Shown one piece after another: positions 19,373 to 25,292 of a stretch of DNA of 64,000 nt. Numbering within the stretch: position 1 is the stretch's first letter; every line of letters begins with the position of its first letter. The notes under the pieces are model-generated. The model searched no databases and was not told the DNA's origin. It saw only the letters and a program-made list of their open reading frames with translations. This DNA is from an uncultured Clostridia bacterium (lineage in GTDB: Bacteria; Bacillota; Clostridia; Oscillospirales; Ruminococcaceae), in contig CAMNXF010000014.1 of the NCBI GenBank assembly GCA_946567425.1, positions 11,883-75,882 on the forward strand. Direction: 5' to 3'. The position numbers and the translations under genes are program-made.

Positions 19373-19402
19373 AGTAAAAAATCTTTTTGGTCAGCGTTTC
19401 AC
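19373..19402 (+). repeat. Island boundary repeat 2, copy A (candidate att site)
   Basis: AGTAAAAAATCTTTTTGGTcagcgtttcac matches 22368-22397 and, inverted, 12028-12041. Confidence 0.6.
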
Positions 19403-19518
19403 AAGTTGAAAGCTACATTTTTGGTGCAAAATGCACAAAAATGTAGTTTTTCTTTTTATACAATTACAAACCGTCGGTTGTAAAGACAATCGGCGGTTTT
19501 CTGTTGGAGGTGATCTTA

Positions 19519-20373
19519 ATGAGCAAACTTAAAGTGGCAGCCTACTGTCGAGTCAGTACTAATCATGAGTAACAGGAGTCGAGTCTTGAAACTCAAGTTT
19601 CCTATTATGGGAAGCTAATTGCGGAGCATAAGGATTGGCAACTGGTAAAAATATATGCCGAGCGTGCTTCGGGAACTCAGATGAAGAAACGCCCCGAGTT
19701 TATGAAAATACTCAAAGCGTGCAAACAAGGCAAGATAGACCTGATACTAACGAAGTCGATAAGCCGTTTCGGAAGAAACACATTGGACACGTTAAAAACA
19801 CTATATGAACTTTTCAATTTAGGTGTTAAAGTCTATTTTGAAAAGGAAAATCTAAACAACTATGACAAGGAGATGCGAACAATGATGGGAATTTATGCGG
19901 GATTTGCACAGGAAGAAAGCAAGAACATGAGTGACAATATCAAGTGGGGCATTCGCGAGAGAATGCGTGAGGGTAAAGTCTGCCTTAATTGTACACGGTT
20001 CTTGGGATACGACAAAGATAAAAATGGCAGGTTAGTGGTCGTGGAATCCGAAGCGGTTATCGTCAGAAAGATATTTGAGTTGTATCTGAACGGTTGGGGA
20101 GTTCGTAAAATCAAGAAATATCTTGAAGAAAATGGAATCAAAACTGTTACAGGCAAGGACGTTTGGAGTACCTCGACGATTGACCGTATTCTCTCCAATG
20201 AAAAATATGTCGGTGATGTGCTTATGCAAAAGAGCTTTACGGAAGACTTCCTAACAGGAAAGCGCAAGAAGAATGAGGGGGAGTTGGATATGTACTTCAT
20301 TGAGAATGACCACGAAGCGATTGTTAGTAGAAATACGTTTACAATGGTACAGGAAAAGAAAAACAAGAAGTAA
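19519..20373 (+). pseudogene. Large serine recombinase (resolvase + recombinase domains) with nonsense codon 18
   Basis: ATG 19519 after GGAGGTG: MSKLKVAAYCRVSTNHE* (TAA 19570), same frame continues QESSLETQ..RPEF..KSISRFGRN..LSNEKYVG..HEAIV. Confidence 0.9.
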
Positions 20374-20501
20374 ATGAGAATCGAACAATTTTCGGGAAAC
20401 GTAAATGTCTATGAGATTGAAAATGATATATTAAGCCTCACGGTGTTCCGATTGTCACTTTATCTTTTGCAGCATATTATGTAGGTAAGGGGGCATAGCT
20501 T

Positions 20502-21416
20502 ATGAATAATAACAGAAATCACTGCGGCGATCCCGCAAATTGCACGCCGAAAATCTCCTGCATGAAAATGCCGGACACATTTCCGCCGCAGCACCAGAAC
20601 AGACAACCTGGTCTGGAATATTTAATGAAACCTGTTCCGATTTCCGAATGCGGCAAACCGTGCCGAAAGCTGGAAGGGAAAATCGCCCTCATAACGGGCG
20701 GTGACAGCGGCATAGGGCGCGCCGTTGCTTACGACTTCGTGAAAGAGGGCGCGTCGGTCGTGATCGTTTATTACGACGAGGACAAGGACGCGGAGGACAC
20801 AGCGGAAAGAATAAGACAACTCGGCGGATGCTGTCTGCTGATAAAGGGCGACCTGAAAAATCCCGAATTCGCACGGGATTGCGTCCAAAAAACAATAGAA
20901 CGCTTCGGCGGATTAGACATCCTCGTAAATAACCACGCATTTCAGTTCGTTCAGAGAAGCATATCGGACATCTCTCACAAGCAGCTTGAATTTATATTCC
21001 GAAACAATGTGTTCTCGTTTTTTTATATGATACAGTACGCTCTGCCATATATGAAAAAAGGCGGCAGCATAATAAATACAGCGTCCGTAACGGCGTTTCA
21101 AGGCAACAAAGACCTTATAGATTACAGCGCGACAAAGGGAGCGATAGTCGCGCTTACGAGATCTCTTTCGTTGTCGCTTGCCGATAAAGGTATCAGAGTG
21201 AACGCGGTCGCTCCCGGTCCGATCTGGACGCCTCTCATTCCCGCCTCTTTTTCAGCCGAGGAGGTTGCGGGCTTTGGCTCGGAAACGTCCTCCGTGCCTA
21301 TGATGAGAGCAGGGCAGCCCTGCGAGGTGTCGCCGTGTTACGTCTTTCTCGCTTCCTGCGACAGCAGCTACATGACCGGACAGGTGCTTAATCCCAACGG
21401 CGGAACGATCGTATAG
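20502..21416 (+). CDS. Short-chain dehydrogenase/reductase (YhdF/YhxC-like)
   Basis: ITGGDSGIGRA, YSATKGAI (YxxxK), RVNAVAPGPIWTPLIP. Confidence 0.93.
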   Translation: MNNNRNHCGDPANCTPKISCMKMPDTFPPQHQNRQPGLEYLMKPVPISECGKPCRKLEGKIALITGGDSGIGRAVAYDFVKEGASVVIVYYDEDKDAEDTAERIRQLGGCCLLIKGDLKNPEFARDCVQKTIERFGGLDILVNNHAFQFVQRSISDISHKQLEFIFRNNVFSFFYMIQYALPYMKKGGSIINTASVTAFQGNKDLIDYSATKGAIVALTRSLSLSLADKGIRVNAVAPGPIWTPLIPASFSAEEVAGFGSETSSVPMMRAGQPCEVSPCYVFLASCDSSYMTGQVLNPNGGTIV

Positions 21417-21470
21417 GGAATAATCGTGTTAAAAAAGGAAACAATAGCTCCCAAAGGGAGGAATGTTTCT

Positions 21471-22160
21471 ATGTTTAAACACGAAAAGCAGTTATTTCAC
21501 CCCGTAGGCGTTGAAAAAGCGAATCCGCAATATGCGGCACTGCTTCAGGAACAACTTGGCGGAGCGAACGGAGAGCTTAAGGCGGCAATGCAGTATATGT
21601 CGCAAAGCTTCAGGATCAAGGATCAGTCTATCAAGGATCTGTTTCTTGATATTGCCGCGGAGGAGCTCGGGCATATGGAGATGGTGGCTCAGACTATCAA
21701 TCTCTTGAACGGTCACGATGTTGACGCTTCAACAGTACCCGCAGGAGAAATCGAATCACACGTTCTGCTTGGATTGAACCCGGGACTTATAAACGCATCC
21801 GGGTATTCATGGACGGGCGATTATGTTACCGTAACGGGAGACCTTTGCGCCGATCTTCTGTCAAATATAGCCTCGGAGCAAAGAGCAAAAGTCGTATACG
21901 AATACCTTTATCGTCAGATCAACGATAACAAGGTGCGGGAGACCATCGATTTTCTGCTGAACCGCGAGGAAGCCCACAACGCTATGTTCCGCGAGGCGTT
22001 CAACAAGGTTCAGAACACGGGCTCGAACCGCGATTTCGGAACGACAAGAGCCGCAAAAATGTATTTCAGTATGTCGGAGCCGTCGCCCGTAGACAGCCCG
22101 TTCCCGAACGTGAACGCAGCTCCGCCGTCGTTCGATAATAACCGTCCTATGGCTCAATAA
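21471..22160 (+). CDS. Manganese catalase family protein
   Basis: EQLGGANGELKAAMQY, DIAAEELGHMEM, NIASEQRAKVVYE, REEAH. Confidence 0.93.
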   Translation: MFKHEKQLFHPVGVEKANPQYAALLQEQLGGANGELKAAMQYMSQSFRIKDQSIKDLFLDIAAEELGHMEMVAQTINLLNGHDVDASTVPAGEIESHVLLGLNPGLINASGYSWTGDYVTVTGDLCADLLSNIASEQRAKVVYEYLYRQINDNKVRETIDFLLNREEAHNAMFREAFNKVQNTGSNRDFGTTRAAKMYFSMSEPSPVDSPFPNVNAAPPSFDNNRPMAQ

Positions 22161-22170
22161 AATTTTAATT

Positions 22171-22330
22171 ACCTGTCAATACCGACTCCATGGGTCGGAC
22201 AATGGCAGGTGTTTTGTTATGATCTCTTTTTCAATAAGGTTTTACTGCAGATCGGTATCAAGCTGAAAGCGAAAAAGGGACGGACTCCGAACTCCGAAGT
22301 CCTATTGAGATGTCCGTGGGGCGATATATT
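22171..22330 (+). repeat. Island boundary repeat 1, copy B
   Basis: ACCTGTCA..TGGCAGGT-GTTTT hairpin and tail homologous to 15585-15790. Confidence 0.75.
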
Positions 22331-22367
22331 ATAAAATAATTAAAGCTGCAGAGCAGTTTTTGAGTGA

Positions 22368-22397
22368 GTAAAAAAATCTTTTTGGTAACGATGTCAC
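22368..22397 (+). repeat. Island boundary repeat 2, copy B
   Basis: AGTAAAAAATCTTTTTTGGTaacgatgtcac followed by a strong hairpin, as in copy A. Confidence 0.6.
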
Positions 22398-22505
22398 AGC
22401 AAAAACGACAGTTTTCGAGAGGAAACTGTCGTTTTTACTTTTTAAAAGAGCTCTTGACAAATGCATAAAATCATGATAAAAATACGATATGAAAAGGAGC
22501 TATAT

Positions 22506-22870
22506 ATGATCCAAATCATACCCGTATCCGATTTAAGAAATAAGTTCATGGAAATCAAAGCCGTTGTAAACAATTGTCAACCCGTATATCTTACAAAAAC
22601 GGCTATGGTATAATGGTAGTTATGAGTATATAGCAATATTCAAGATTGCTCGGAAACATTGATGCAAGACTGGATGAAGCGGACATGGAAGCCTGGAAAC
22701 AGATAAACGCCTATCTCATGACAACATTTTTGACAACGTCCGCAGGAGGCTGACAGAATAAATGTTTATTACGAATATACATCGGAAAATTTTTTTCGTG
22801 GTTATAGACGATATAGTGGAGGCAAGGCGCTCTTTATACAGCGAACGTGTATTTGACAGGCTGCTGTAAA
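22506..22870 (+). pseudogene. Decayed type II toxin-antitoxin pair (Phd/YefM antitoxin plus RelE/ParE-like toxin tail)
   Basis: MIQIIPVSDLRNKF..PVYLTK.GYG..VVMSI* ..LDEAD; toxin-like tail VIDDIVEARRSLYS; multiple frameshifts/stops. Confidence 0.7.
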
Positions 22871-23190
22871 AAAATCATTCTAAAAAATTCTTTTTTGTCT
22901 GTGTTTTTTAGATTAGAGCTGCCGATGCCGGCTGTGTTTGCACAGCCCATACCACATATTGGGGAAAACCAATGCAAAATTACTATATTTTAATATGTAT
23001 AAAAAACGCATAAATTCGCATTGGAGAATTTGTGCGGCTTTTCAAAATACTTCTCCTTTTTCAAATTAGGGTTTCTATTGTTCTGATTTTTAAATTCATC
23101 GTCAAAGCGTCGGAACAGGCACCTATCTATAAATGGATAGCAGCCCGATAAACTGAAAGTTATCAAATTGTATACAAGCGCTATCAAATT

Positions 23191-23733
23191 CTATTTAAGC
23201 ATAAAATCCGCCCACGCACACTGATAATCACTTAAATGTTCATTCCAGTACATTATTTTTTCAATGTATTGCTGTTTTCGTTGCTCCACGGCTTCTCTAC
23301 AATTTTCAATTCCATATTTATATATAATCGCGGTAAGGTCATATATCGGATAACCTATTGCATGTCCGGCAGTATGCACGACTGCACATGCTTGTCCTAT
23401 GGAATGACAGATGGCAATATCTTCTTTATTATCAATTTCTTTTGCAAATGCGTGGCAATCTAATATTTTTCGTTGTGCTAAGCGCATTTTAATTTTTCCG
23501 GATGCCCAAGCTTTGACCGCTTCCAATGCTTCTCGCGGGCGCTTTTCTTCTGGATACTTTTCTTCAAGTTTCGCAATGGACTCAGATGCAAAATCAAATG
23601 CCCACAAAGCCAAAACACGATGGTTTTGAGTTTCAAATAGCATAATTAAATCTTGTATAGACTCTGATTTTTTGGTAAATAGCACTTGATTTTTCTTTTT
23701 AAGTTTTACAGACACTTCATCTATCCAATTCAT
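23191..23733 (-). CDS. Imm5-like putative immunity protein
   Basis: LALWA..A..........RPREALEA..AW..G.....A.......HA.A......AI..SIGQA.AVVH...HA pattern; GGAGG RBS. Confidence 0.65.
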   Translation of the reverse strand: MNWIDEVSVKLKKKNQVLFTKKSESIQDLIMLFETQNHRVLALWAFDFASESIAKLEEKYPEEKRPREALEAVKAWASGKIKMRLAQRKILDCHAFAKEIDNKEDIAICHSIGQACAVVHTAGHAIGYPIYDLTAIIYKYGIENCREAVEQRKQQYIEKIMYWNEHLSDYQCAWADFMLK

Positions 23734-23857
23734 TTTCTGCCTCCATATATAGGTTTGTTTCTCAAATGTATCATAAGCATTCAGCAAATTCAATGTGGAC
23801 CGATGAAATCACCCGAATCAAATCCCGGCAACCATTATCTTAAAAGGGACAAATATT

Positions 23858-24334
23858 TTACTTTATGATCGCGGACAGATTGAAGCCGTCAAAAAACTTA
23901 TCGTTGAAACGTTTTTCATACGGACGTACAAAACATATTTTGTATTCGCGGAGACTTGCTTTCGGCGCGCCCGCAATCTCCGGAAGCGCGTGAACCGCGT
24001 CGATAAGCGCACAGGCTTGTTCGGCGTTGTTTGCTGCGAGAAGCTCCTCCGCCCTGTCGCACGCGGCGGAGATAAGCTGCCCGAGTGCCGAATACCCGTC
24101 GGGTAATTCTGCGGCAGCCAAACGAACTTCAATCAAACGCTCCGCAAAACCCTCCGAACAGCCGAGCAGTGCGGCACGGAATTTTATCAGCGCTAAGGAC
24201 AAATTATTCAGCGGCTCGCTTAAAATATACTTTCCGAAACGCTTTTCCTGCCGCTTGTTAAGCGCGGTGCGGGTTTTCTTGGCTCGGATAATGCCTTTAA
24301 GCCGCTTGATATCGCCCGATAATTCCATGTTCAT
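23858..24334 (-). CDS. Hypothetical protein
   Basis: ORF starts 2 nt after the moxR stop; host-like codons. Confidence 0.7.
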   Translation of the reverse strand: MNMELSGDIKRLKGIIRAKKTRTALNKRQEKRFGKYILSEPLNNLSLALIKFRAALLGCSEGFAERLIEVRLAAAELPDGYSALGQLISAACDRAEELLAANNAEQACALIDAVHALPEIAGAPKASLREYKICFVRPYEKRFNDKFFDGFNLSAIIK

Positions 24335-24335
24335 C

Positions 24336-25250
24336 TTAAACCGGAACTACCGTTTCCGTAAGTATCCGTTGGATTATCTCCTCGGACGACAGATATTCGC
24401 TCTGCCCCGCCGCGAGAATTACCCTATGACCGAGAACAGACGAAGCCATGGTCTTCACGTCGTCGGGTGTGGCAAACGCGCGGTTGTTTATCAGTGCCAT
24501 TGCCTGCGCGGCTCTGAAAAGGGCGATAGAGGCTCTTGGCGACGCGCCGAGCTTTATTTCCTGCTTGTTTCGGGTCGCCCCGACGATCATCAGAATGTAT
24601 GCCTTGACCTGTTCCGACACGGAAACGCGCGACGCCATTTCACGCAAGGAAATTACTTCCTCCAGCGTCATAACGGGCTGAACCTCGATGTTGTGCGGCA
24701 TTTTTTCAAGCATCTTCATTTCGGCGGCGCGGTCAGGATAGCCTATCGACAGGCGCATTAAAAAGCGGTCGAGCTGCGCCTCGGGAAGGTGATATGTTCC
24801 GTAGGTCTCGATCGGGTTCTGGGTCGCCAAGGTCATAAACGGCACGGGGAGCTTGTGCGTAACGCCGTCAACGGATATTTGCAGCTCCTCCATTGCCTCC
24901 AGCAGCGAGGACTGCACTTTCGGAGAGGTTCGGTTTATTTCGTCCGCGAGCAGAAAGTTGCACATCGCCGCACCAGCGCGGTACTCCACCGCGCCCGTTT
25001 TTTGGTCTATGACCGTGTAGCCGATAACGTCCGACGGCATAAGGTCGGGCGTGAACTGAATTCGCCCGAAGCTCCCCGACACGGACTTCGCCAGTGTTTC
25101 CGCAAGCAGCGTCTTCCCCACTCCGGGAACGTCCTCGATAAGCACGTGTCCGCCCGCTATCATCGCGCAGATTATCTTTACGATAACGTCGTGCTTGCCT
25201 ATAATTACGTTTTCAATATTTTTGATGAGCTGTTCAATTCTCGGGTTCAT
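24336..25250 (-). CDS. moxR: MoxR-family AAA+ ATPase
   Basis: HVLIEDVPGVGKT, RIQFTPDLMPSD, LLADEINR, ATQNPIE.YGTY.LPEAQLDRF. Confidence 0.95.
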   Translation of the reverse strand: MNPRIEQLIKNIENVIIGKHDVIVKIICAMIAGGHVLIEDVPGVGKTLLAETLAKSVSGSFGRIQFTPDLMPSDVIGYTVIDQKTGAVEYRAGAAMCNFLLADEINRTSPKVQSSLLEAMEELQISVDGVTHKLPVPFMTLATQNPIETYGTYHLPEAQLDRFLMRLSIGYPDRAAEMKMLEKMPHNIEVQPVMTLEEVISLREMASRVSVSEQVKAYILMIVGATRNKQEIKLGASPRASIALFRAAQAMALINNRAFATPDDVKTMASSVLGHRVILAAGQSEYLSSEEIIQRILTETVVPV

Positions 25251-25292
25251 ATCGTGTCACCTTTTTCTTTATCATTTCGTTTTGATTTTTCC

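Follow-up and report, generated by a model that had tools for sequence, protein, structure and literature searches.

The 64-kb stretch of DNA analysed here (the window; C14:11883-75882, with positions counted from its first letter) belongs to a 2.9-Mb draft assembly, in 40 contigs, of a cellulolytic clostridial organism, and it contains a genomic island behind a tRNA-Gln gene. Within this island, positions 19404-22398 appear to form one discrete integrative unit, a now inactive copy of a family of very small elements of gut Clostridia built around a short serine recombinase (SR); we put the probability of this reading at about 0.7. The comparisons described below support the view that the island is a stack of tandem elements behind a tRNA-Gln gene whose occupancy varies, in which the 3-kb unit would be the distal member and a decayed element resembling integrative and conjugative elements (ICEs) the proximal one.

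Both ends of the unit are set by an identity block shared with another genome, a shared leader and the right-end arm (RE). The block of 3,025 bp (19379-22401) is 98.1% identical to one at locus L024 (L024:167-3194); the match opens within the preceding RE and ends 3 nt beyond the RE of the unit itself, and the flanks are unrelated. A preliminary description of this DNA, made from the sequence alone, had proposed a self-contained recombinase-cargo unit bounded at the two copies of a direct repeat (repeat 2), and the ends of the L024 block confirm this. The gene order given there for the 3-kb block was borne out as well: repeat 2A, hairpins, SR, short-chain dehydrogenase/reductase (SDR), Mn-catalase, repeat 1B and repeat 2B (Table 1). 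In the left end (LE) of the unit, the first 19 nt are essentially invariant in an alignment of 21 copies, hairpin 1 (~19408-19451) is nearly so, and hairpin 2 (~19470-19497) is followed by a T-run and then by a ribosome-binding site. Of the 25 pairs in the consensus fold of these copies, 6 show compensatory changes, and most of these lie in hairpin 2. A search of Rfam at gathering thresholds returned tRNAs, RNase P and SRP RNA only, with no match for the hairpins or for the second repeat of the island (repeat 1).

The divergence from the L024 copy is mosaic. The SDR and Mn-catalase genes show three differences each, all synonymous (0.33-0.41 per 100 nt), and the SR gene 4.1 differences per 100 nt (20 synonymous and 11 non-synonymous codons), so that the SR half and the cargo half appear to have separate histories. 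This suggests a recent exchange of modules between units, involving the cargo and right-end half, beyond mere relaxed selection on the SR pseudogene. The window copy is a fossil: its recombinase is dead, and its cargo, separated from that of the L024 twin by synonymous changes alone, has been kept.

A scan of one genome per species returned 74 loci with relatives of the SR, 27 of which are at least 68% identical to it. These 27 loci have the same LE about 112 nt upstream of the gene and, where the contig allows, an RE (an arm of 25-28 nt) 1.1-5.0 kb downstream, with from none to a few cargo genes in between. Loci L001-L013 come from rabbit and mouse guts; the SR is intact at L001 and L010, and also in the isolate Ruminococcus sp. 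Marseille-P6503 (L023), at 74% identity. Each unit has a single SR, with no recombinase pair of the kind known as CcrA/B or DsiA/B. The cargo of the relatives is varied and mostly anti-phage (IetA/IetS, TIR-TM, AbiLi, a PtuA/AriA-like ATPase with an FRG-domain protein); other units carry a MatE efflux pump or a ParA-like ATPase. A candidate small toxin-antitoxin pair was noted in L036, judged from open reading frames (ORFs) alone. Among 151 sampled genomes of the order, only the window's own has a close copy, and the family is therefore scattered rather than ubiquitous; the plasmid, phage and IMG/VR collections held no relative above 55% identity.

The LE adjoins the CCA of at least 12 tRNA isoacceptors, as named by ARAGORN (Arg-ACG, Arg-CCG, Gln-CUG, Gln-UUG, Leu-CAG, Leu-GAG, Leu-UAA, Met, Pro, Ser-CGA, Thr-CGU and Thr-GGU), and otherwise the CACA of an RE (~15 cases). 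The latter junction, RE followed at once by LE, recurs at L005, L008, L013, L021, L024, L025, L027 and L056 and on contigs C13 and C23 of the window's genome. Insertion is strictly after a tRNA CCA or an RE CACA and always in one orientation. The dinucleotide CA is the sole sequence common to all left flanks, and all four bases occur after REs. Units that lie directly on a tRNA have no left repeat and no target duplication of 15-20 bp, the CA alone being shared.

The two copies of repeat 2, AAAAAATCTTTTTGGTCAGCGTTTCACA (repeat 2A) and AAAAAATCTTTTTGGTAACGATGTCACA (repeat 2B, 22371-22398), are identical at 23 of 28 positions and share an exact core of 16 nt that occurs four times in the whole 2.9-Mb genome. 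We built a weight matrix from 28 related right ends and scanned the 64-kb window and five shuffles of it. The two repeat-2 sites scored 30 and 44.7 bits in direct orientation, and no other site of at least 10 bits was found in the window, nor any in the shuffles. With a core this rare, two sites only and no shuffle matches, repeat 2 is not a chance match; repeat 1 (74% identity over 80 nt), also named in the preliminary description, is real as well. A third copy of repeat 2 considered at 22883-22910 is degenerate, stays below 10 bits in the scan and was set aside as unproven and not significant.

Both copies are half-sites of one kind: each is a right (P-type) arm with CA at its end. Repeat 2A lies outside the 3-kb unit and is the right end of a decayed upstream element (12021-19403), whose own left end belongs to a type that we call A-type. 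Repeat 2 has the variants GGTAACGATGTCA-CA (repeat 2B) and GGTCAGCGTTTCA-CA (repeat 2A), and the first 24 nt of the A-type left arm likewise come in two variants, ACTAATTGTTACCAAAAAGATATT and TGAAACACTGACAAAAAAGATATT, which repeat these sequences in inverted form. By direct reading, repeat 2A matches the second A-type left-arm subtype, TGAAACACTGACAAAAAAGAT, at 19 of 21 positions in inverted orientation. Repeat 2B and the arm on the tRNA-Gln side together give GGTAAC-N7-[CA]-N7-GTTACC, symmetric at 20 of 30 positions and centred exactly on the CA in which both the repeat and the tRNA end. On contig C29, an RE and an A-type left end are joined without a gap. Serine-recombinase attachment sites have this layout, with two inverted half-sites on either side of a 2-bp crossover. 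The repeat-2 copies, earlier called attL/attR-like, do not form a duplicated attL/attR pair, since the two are half-sites of the same kind and units on a tRNA lack a left repeat.

The SR of the window has a resolvase-type catalytic domain at its N-terminus (PF00239, 2.2e-31, residues 6-153), in which Y9, R11, S13, R83 and R86 are invariant across 22 SR sequences. The second domain is a recombinase domain (PF07508, 5.4e-25, residues 177-283) that covers the whole profile, and the ORF ends where this domain ends. The zinc-ribbon/coiled-coil region and the length of 400-700 aa that mark large serine recombinases (LSRs) are absent, and cargo or an RE follows the gene directly. The family does not belong to the Tn3/gamma-delta/Hin type (180-200 aa, helix-turn-helix), as its C-terminal half is an LSR-type recombinase domain, nor to the IS607 type, as the catalytic domain is N-terminal; IS607-type TnpA matches the catalytic core only, and weakly. 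In an AlphaFold model (pLDDT 77), the catalytic domain, a helix at residues 117-150 and the recombinase domain are seen, and the model matches the SPbeta, phiC31 and Bxb1 integrases over the catalytic and recombinase domains only (top folds 9dxh, 4bqq and 9iu2). In sequence, the SR aligns to residues 57-293 of the 545 of SPbeta integrase.

The short length is natural to the family. Sixteen intact genes at least 68% identical to the SR run for 283-290 codons from a conserved start, and L026 (55%) has 301. Among the best 120 matches in the protein collection, ~110 clusters are 283-299 aa long with PF00239 and PF07508 only, and the homologues at 42-52% identity are LSRs of 465-548 aa. Intact SRs have a median dN/dS of 0.045 over 44 pairs, with dS saturating, which indicates strong purifying selection. 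We therefore rejected a truncated LSR as an explanation of the gene, the relatives being consistently 283-290 aa long with the same end point. Nor is the gene a damaged LSR whose C-terminus would need repair: with a family length of ~283 aa, the only damage in the window copy is the nonsense codon, at a position where the relatives have Glu. The twin at L024 is broken by a 2-nt insertion near codon 113. No description of this SR family was found in a full-text search of the literature, and a 2017 review of integrative and mobilizable elements lists no recombinases other than those of the tyrosine type at tRNA 3' ends.

Table 1. Features of the island in the window (window positions) and LE-to-RE lengths of related units at other loci.
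Feature	Position	Strand	LE-to-RE length	Description
tRNA-Gln(UUG)	11945-12020	+		ARAGORN, Rfam; terminal CA (12019-12020) is the island junction (anchor, putative attB left arm)
A-type left end	12021-12430	+		Arm ACTAATTGTTACCAAAAAGATATT at 12021-12044, then ~400 nt of conserved non-coding DNA with hairpins
Decayed body	12431-19375	+		LysR, aldo-keto reductase and flavodoxin fragments (ORFs, Pfam)
GH5 cellulase	14386-15582	+
IS3	~15824-16991 (ORF 15826-16944)			Single copy; cuts the right-end module behind GH5
ADP-ribosyltransferase (ART)-like gene	17100-17714			PF03496, 2.8e-12; no PADLOC match
483-aa ORF	17869-19320
Repeat 2A	19376-19403	+		RE of the upstream element, ends in CACA; putative landing site of the 3-kb unit (attL B arm)
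LE of the unit	19404-19518	+		115-nt leader AGTTGAAAGCTACATTTTT..., two hairpins
SR pseudogene	19519-20373	+		284 codons, TAA at codon 18 (19570-19572)
SDR, cargo gene 1	20502-21416	+		304 aa, intact; PF13561, 6.6e-58
Mn-catalase family, cargo gene 2	21426-22160	+		244 aa, intact; PF05067, 8e-54
Non-coding right-end module	22166-22398	+		Repeat 1B first, repeat 2B last (...GTCACA); terminal CA at 22397-22398
First flank DNA after the unit	22399-22436	+		Strong terminator hairpin (22401-22436), as right after CCA at empty tRNA sites
L010			1.1 kb	SR only
L036			2.3 kb
L022			2.5 kb
L004			2.6 kb
L019/L020			2.7 kb
L024			3.0 kb
L025			3.4 kb
L005			5.0 kb	Second left end follows at once (two tandem units)

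The tRNA-Gln gene is the last of a cluster (Gly-Arg-His-Gln) that ends at 12020 and is directly preceded by a GH9-CBM3 cellulase gene. From 12000 to ~24000 the G+C content is 34-49%, compared with 50-62% on either side. A scan of ORFs with Pfam found no tyrosine recombinase in or beside the stack, and the IntI/attI/attC combination of an integron is not present. The predicted tandem stack at a tRNA-Gln hotspot agrees with the state of this site in other genomes of the genus: in three (G012, G005 and G001) it is empty, with unrelated native terminators following the tRNA, in G006 a 95-nt mini-unit ending in an RE lies directly after tRNA-Gln, and in G009, the closest relative, an A-type end is followed by the end of the contig. 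A clean ancestral empty site for the exact stack of the window was not found among these, the G009 contig ending after the A-type end. RE arms were also seen in arrays, spaced 88-170 nt and each followed by a small hairpin (L002:385-915, L056:7596-7886 and L056:10811-11157). These arrays and the G006 mini-unit (L095 524-618) could be empty cassettes, deletion scars or non-autonomous units resembling miniature inverted-repeat transposable elements.

The true left end of the whole island is the inverted copy of the motif right after the CCA of tRNA-Gln. The A-type left end that it opens is found in 20 of 41 genomes of the genus. In the window's genome it has 11 copies (contigs C2, C8, C9, C12, C15, C18 with two, C19 and C29, besides the window itself) and stands directly behind the CCA of at least 10 different tRNA genes, often at contig ends. 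About 250 nt inside the window copy, at 12274-12290, a second arm motif, CTGACAAAAAAGATATC, has the same orientation as the terminal arm. An equivalent motif is present in all three copies in G049 (L099-L101), at a distance of ~260-340 nt from the tRNA, and the motif may serve in accessory binding. At L024:5799-5900, an A-type left end abuts ...GGTTCCACCA, which resembles the 3' end of a tmRNA; if it is one, tmRNA ends would be used besides those of tRNAs (the ARAGORN run covered tRNAs only).

The A-type element of G049 exceeds 45 kb and carries pilus/secretion-like genes, a methylase and, 45-49 kb in from the left end, three tandem SR-family genes of 458, 180 and 556 aa. Of the full-length relatives identified, the 556-aa LSR stands nearest to the short SR, at 48.6% identity. 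In the window's genome, none of the genes that neighbour the REs of C13, C23 and C29 encodes a recombinase, and C28, C37 and C39 carry unrelated LSRs (25-48% identity).

Upstream of the 3-kb unit, the order previously given (GH5, repeat 1A, IS3, ART-like gene, 483-aa ORF, repeat 2A) was found as stated. We read the block 12021-19403 as a decayed ICE-like member of the family with the shared right-arm motif, together with later arrivals. The idea of a stack of small cassettes thus applies to the 3-kb unit and not to this upstream block. The IS3 copy has a fused transposase ORF of 372 aa and imperfect terminal repeats TGTCAC..TTTT..CGTTC. The 483-aa ORF has no Pfam or PADLOC match, and its former label as a nuclease is unconfirmed.

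Repeat 1 (15606-15685 and 22189-22268; 80 nt, 74% identical) consists of a terminator-like hairpin and a tail, and it forms the start of a conserved non-coding module of ~250-340 nt between the last cargo gene and the RE. The module reaches the RE in L003, L005, L024 and L027 and is also present in L001, L008, L012, G006 and contig C23 of the window's genome; its tail has recurring GAATCTGAAC and GATTTGAAAT-like words. Since repeat 1 opens the conserved right-end module of the units, repeat 1B belongs to the 3-kb unit, and repeat 1A (module copy ~15585-15823) is apparently the former right-end module of a GH5 cassette. The ~65 nt that lead up to repeat 2A are similar to the distal portion of the L019 module. 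The ART-like gene and the 483-aa ORF lie between IS3 and repeat 2A, inside what would once have been a single right-end module.

From these junctions we infer the following course. An excised circle would carry attP as RE-[CA]-LE, and the short SR, as the presumed catalyst, would exchange strands at the CA. The left half of the target would be a tRNA 3' end (...CCA) or a resident RE (...CACA), and its right half almost any sequence. The products would be X-CA-LE... and ...RE-CA-flank, where X is the tRNA 3' end or RE, with the expected junctions tRNA...CCA/AGTTGAAAG and ...GTCACA/flank. Because every insertion brings a new RE and so regenerates the landing site, stacks would grow. Excision in the window would be the reverse reaction between the junctions 19402/19404 and 22397/22399, and excision by recombination between the repeat-2 copies, as proposed earlier, should therefore hold in principle.

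As to the history of the island, an ICE-like A-type element with the same RE and a palindromic left arm would first have inserted at the CCA of tRNA-Gln and undergone decay. Later, the SDR/Mn-catalase unit would have landed on repeat 2A, after which its SR gained the nonsense codon and the cargo was left fixed. The proximal element is probably old, being decayed and having a left end in common with G009, and the distal unit young, being 98-99.6% identical to a copy elsewhere. The unit therefore probably landed on repeat 2A and was not moved away from the tRNA by a more recent insertion there. Movement between cells could plausibly occur by hitch-hiking, through co-excision with an adjacent ICE-like element.

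Tentatively, and at somewhat below even odds, we propose that the 283-aa SR alone is enough to integrate and excise DNA at the terminal CCA of practically every tRNA or tmRNA gene. Several points weigh against our main reading of the unit. The SR is broken in 10 of the 27 close copies, each time at a different place, and the window's genome holds none that is intact, those on C13 (88 codons), C23 and C34 being relics. No convincing SR promoter was found in the unit, and two terminator-like hairpins separate the LE from the SR start. Unlike the A-type arm, the left arm of the unit itself shows only weak symmetry with the RE, and in G049 a complete A-type right end was not located, with no RE within 80 kb. 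To our knowledge, all characterised LSRs need the zinc-ribbon/coiled-coil for reading att sites and for direction; how an SR without it would recognise a tRNA end is unexplained.

By an alternative, unlikely in our estimate, the units are non-autonomous. The short SR would be accessory or site-blind, and the units would be moved by the full-length LSRs of co-resident A-type elements, either as in CcrA/CcrB or as elements mobilisable in cis or trans. The small units and the A-type elements do have the RE in common, the A-type left arm is its true palindromic partner, the G049 element carries three SR-family genes with the 556-aa LSR among them, and the short SR lacks the zinc-ribbon/coiled-coil. 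However, all units share the SR and no other gene, the 1.1-kb unit of L010 has no gene besides it, and the low dN/dS shows that it is under strong purifying selection. Moreover, units are present in metagenome-assembled genomes that bear the labels of several families, and the A-type left end was met in the genus and at L024 only.

Integration by an SR of the unit's own also accounts better for the junctions than a DDE transposon would, with repeat 2 and its inverted partners as terminal inverted repeats, a 2-bp duplication of CA and the SR as a passenger. The A-type ends do resemble terminal inverted repeats of 14-20 bp, and CA is present at both junctions, but no transposase is conserved in the units, the sole DDE gene being that of the unrelated IS3 with its own ends. 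A shared core of 2 bp is exactly what serine recombinases leave, and the single orientation strictly behind CCA or CACA likewise speaks against transposition, which we consider very improbable. Still less credible is a patch of genes without defined ends, its repeats being regulatory or AT-rich intergenic motifs or assembly artefacts: the region is AT-rich and the draft has 40 contigs, which related repeats break, yet the core motif is rare in the genome and unmatched in shuffles, dozens of independent assemblies have these ends again, and the exact ends of the L024 identity block already contradict it.

The closest published analogues of the system are the ssrA islands of Dehalococcoides and the staphylococcal cassette chromosome (SCC), with Tn4451 and the tycheposons also close; the stacking logic is common to such systems, and the enzyme architecture, the generic CCA target and the tiny size are not. 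The Dehalococcoides islands (DsiB/DsiA; McMurdie et al. 2011, PMC3146451) likewise combine a serine recombinase with the 3' end of a tRNA-like gene, form tandem stacks and include recombinase-less units between att copies; being non-conjugative, they are presumably mobilised by other means (PMC3146451). They differ in using one target (ssrA), with a crossover in the T-loop and a duplicated repeat of 20 bp (PMC3146451). Their recombinase has ~530 aa (a CcrB-like gene of ~1,600 bp) and is accompanied by a second, smaller serine recombinase in a six-gene integration module. The islands are on the 10-kb scale, in contrast to units of 1.1-5 kb with a single 283-aa SR, at least 12 tRNA types as targets and only CA duplicated.

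SCC elements target the 3' end of rlmH (orfX) and are cassettes of 20-60 kb. Their Ccr proteins have 450-560 aa with full C-terminal domains and are usually paired. As in the family described here, the cassettes (SCCmec/ACME, with CcrAB/CcrC) stack with an att repeat at each junction, as is generally known and also discussed in PMC3146451. Tn4451 carries a mobilisation gene and an oriT, does not target tRNA genes and forms no stacks. Its recombinase TnpX has ~700 aa and full C-terminal domains, and it uses a GA crossover and loosely specific sites. Tn4451 and Tn4453 are nevertheless alike in being small clostridial elements with a single serine recombinase (TnpX), a circular intermediate, a 2-bp crossover and no directionality factor (PMC5704250).

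The tycheposons of Prochlorococcus are cargo-bearing integrative elements that lie at tRNA genes, build up tandem arrays and reshape islands, and an LSR is present in 27 of 937 of them (10.1101/2020.12.28.424599). Unlike the units described here, they mostly have tyrosine recombinases, each specific for one tRNA, leave partial tRNA repeats, and are larger, often with replication genes. Integrons, too, gather small and often promoter-less cassettes at a fixed platform, in one orientation and with a conserved site at the cassette end. They do so by a tyrosine recombinase acting on folded single-stranded attC, with the integrase in the platform, whereas here a serine recombinase is part of the mobile unit. 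As each unit brings a landing arm that resembles a tRNA end, the system would act as an analogue of integrons based on a serine recombinase.

Should this role be confirmed, anti-phage and stress genes would be collected behind tRNA genes in gut Clostridia, and such genes could be traded compactly among gut Firmicutes without phage or plasmid backbones. It would also explain one class of tRNA-gene islands that have no tyrosine integrase. If the short SR is sufficient alone, the SR-only unit of 1.1 kb would be the smallest autonomous site-specific integrative element known, and a serine integrase that works without the zinc-ribbon/coiled-coil would question the current structural account of att recognition and directionality. 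A 283-aa enzyme acting on tRNA ends, which are universal, multi-copy and akin to safe harbours, would be an attractive tool for genome engineering.

On the right of the stack, the DNA from 22399 to 23800 is also foreign relative to G009. It has the terminator, a promoter-like site, fragments at 22507-22613 that resemble a broken Phd/YefM-type antitoxin ORF and, on the minus strand at 23191-23793, an Imm5-like immunity gene. In G009 (loci L085 and L093), a homologue of 22984-23042 and 23882-25258, including the MoxR gene, follows an empty tRNA-Arg(CCU). In the window's genome, tRNA-Arg(CCU) lies on contig C15 (C15:20073-35033) and carries an A-type left end. With the right flank of the window standing behind tRNA-Arg(CCU) in G009, the flanks of two tRNA-anchored stacks seem to have been swapped, seemingly by rearrangement between the elements, misassembly being less likely.

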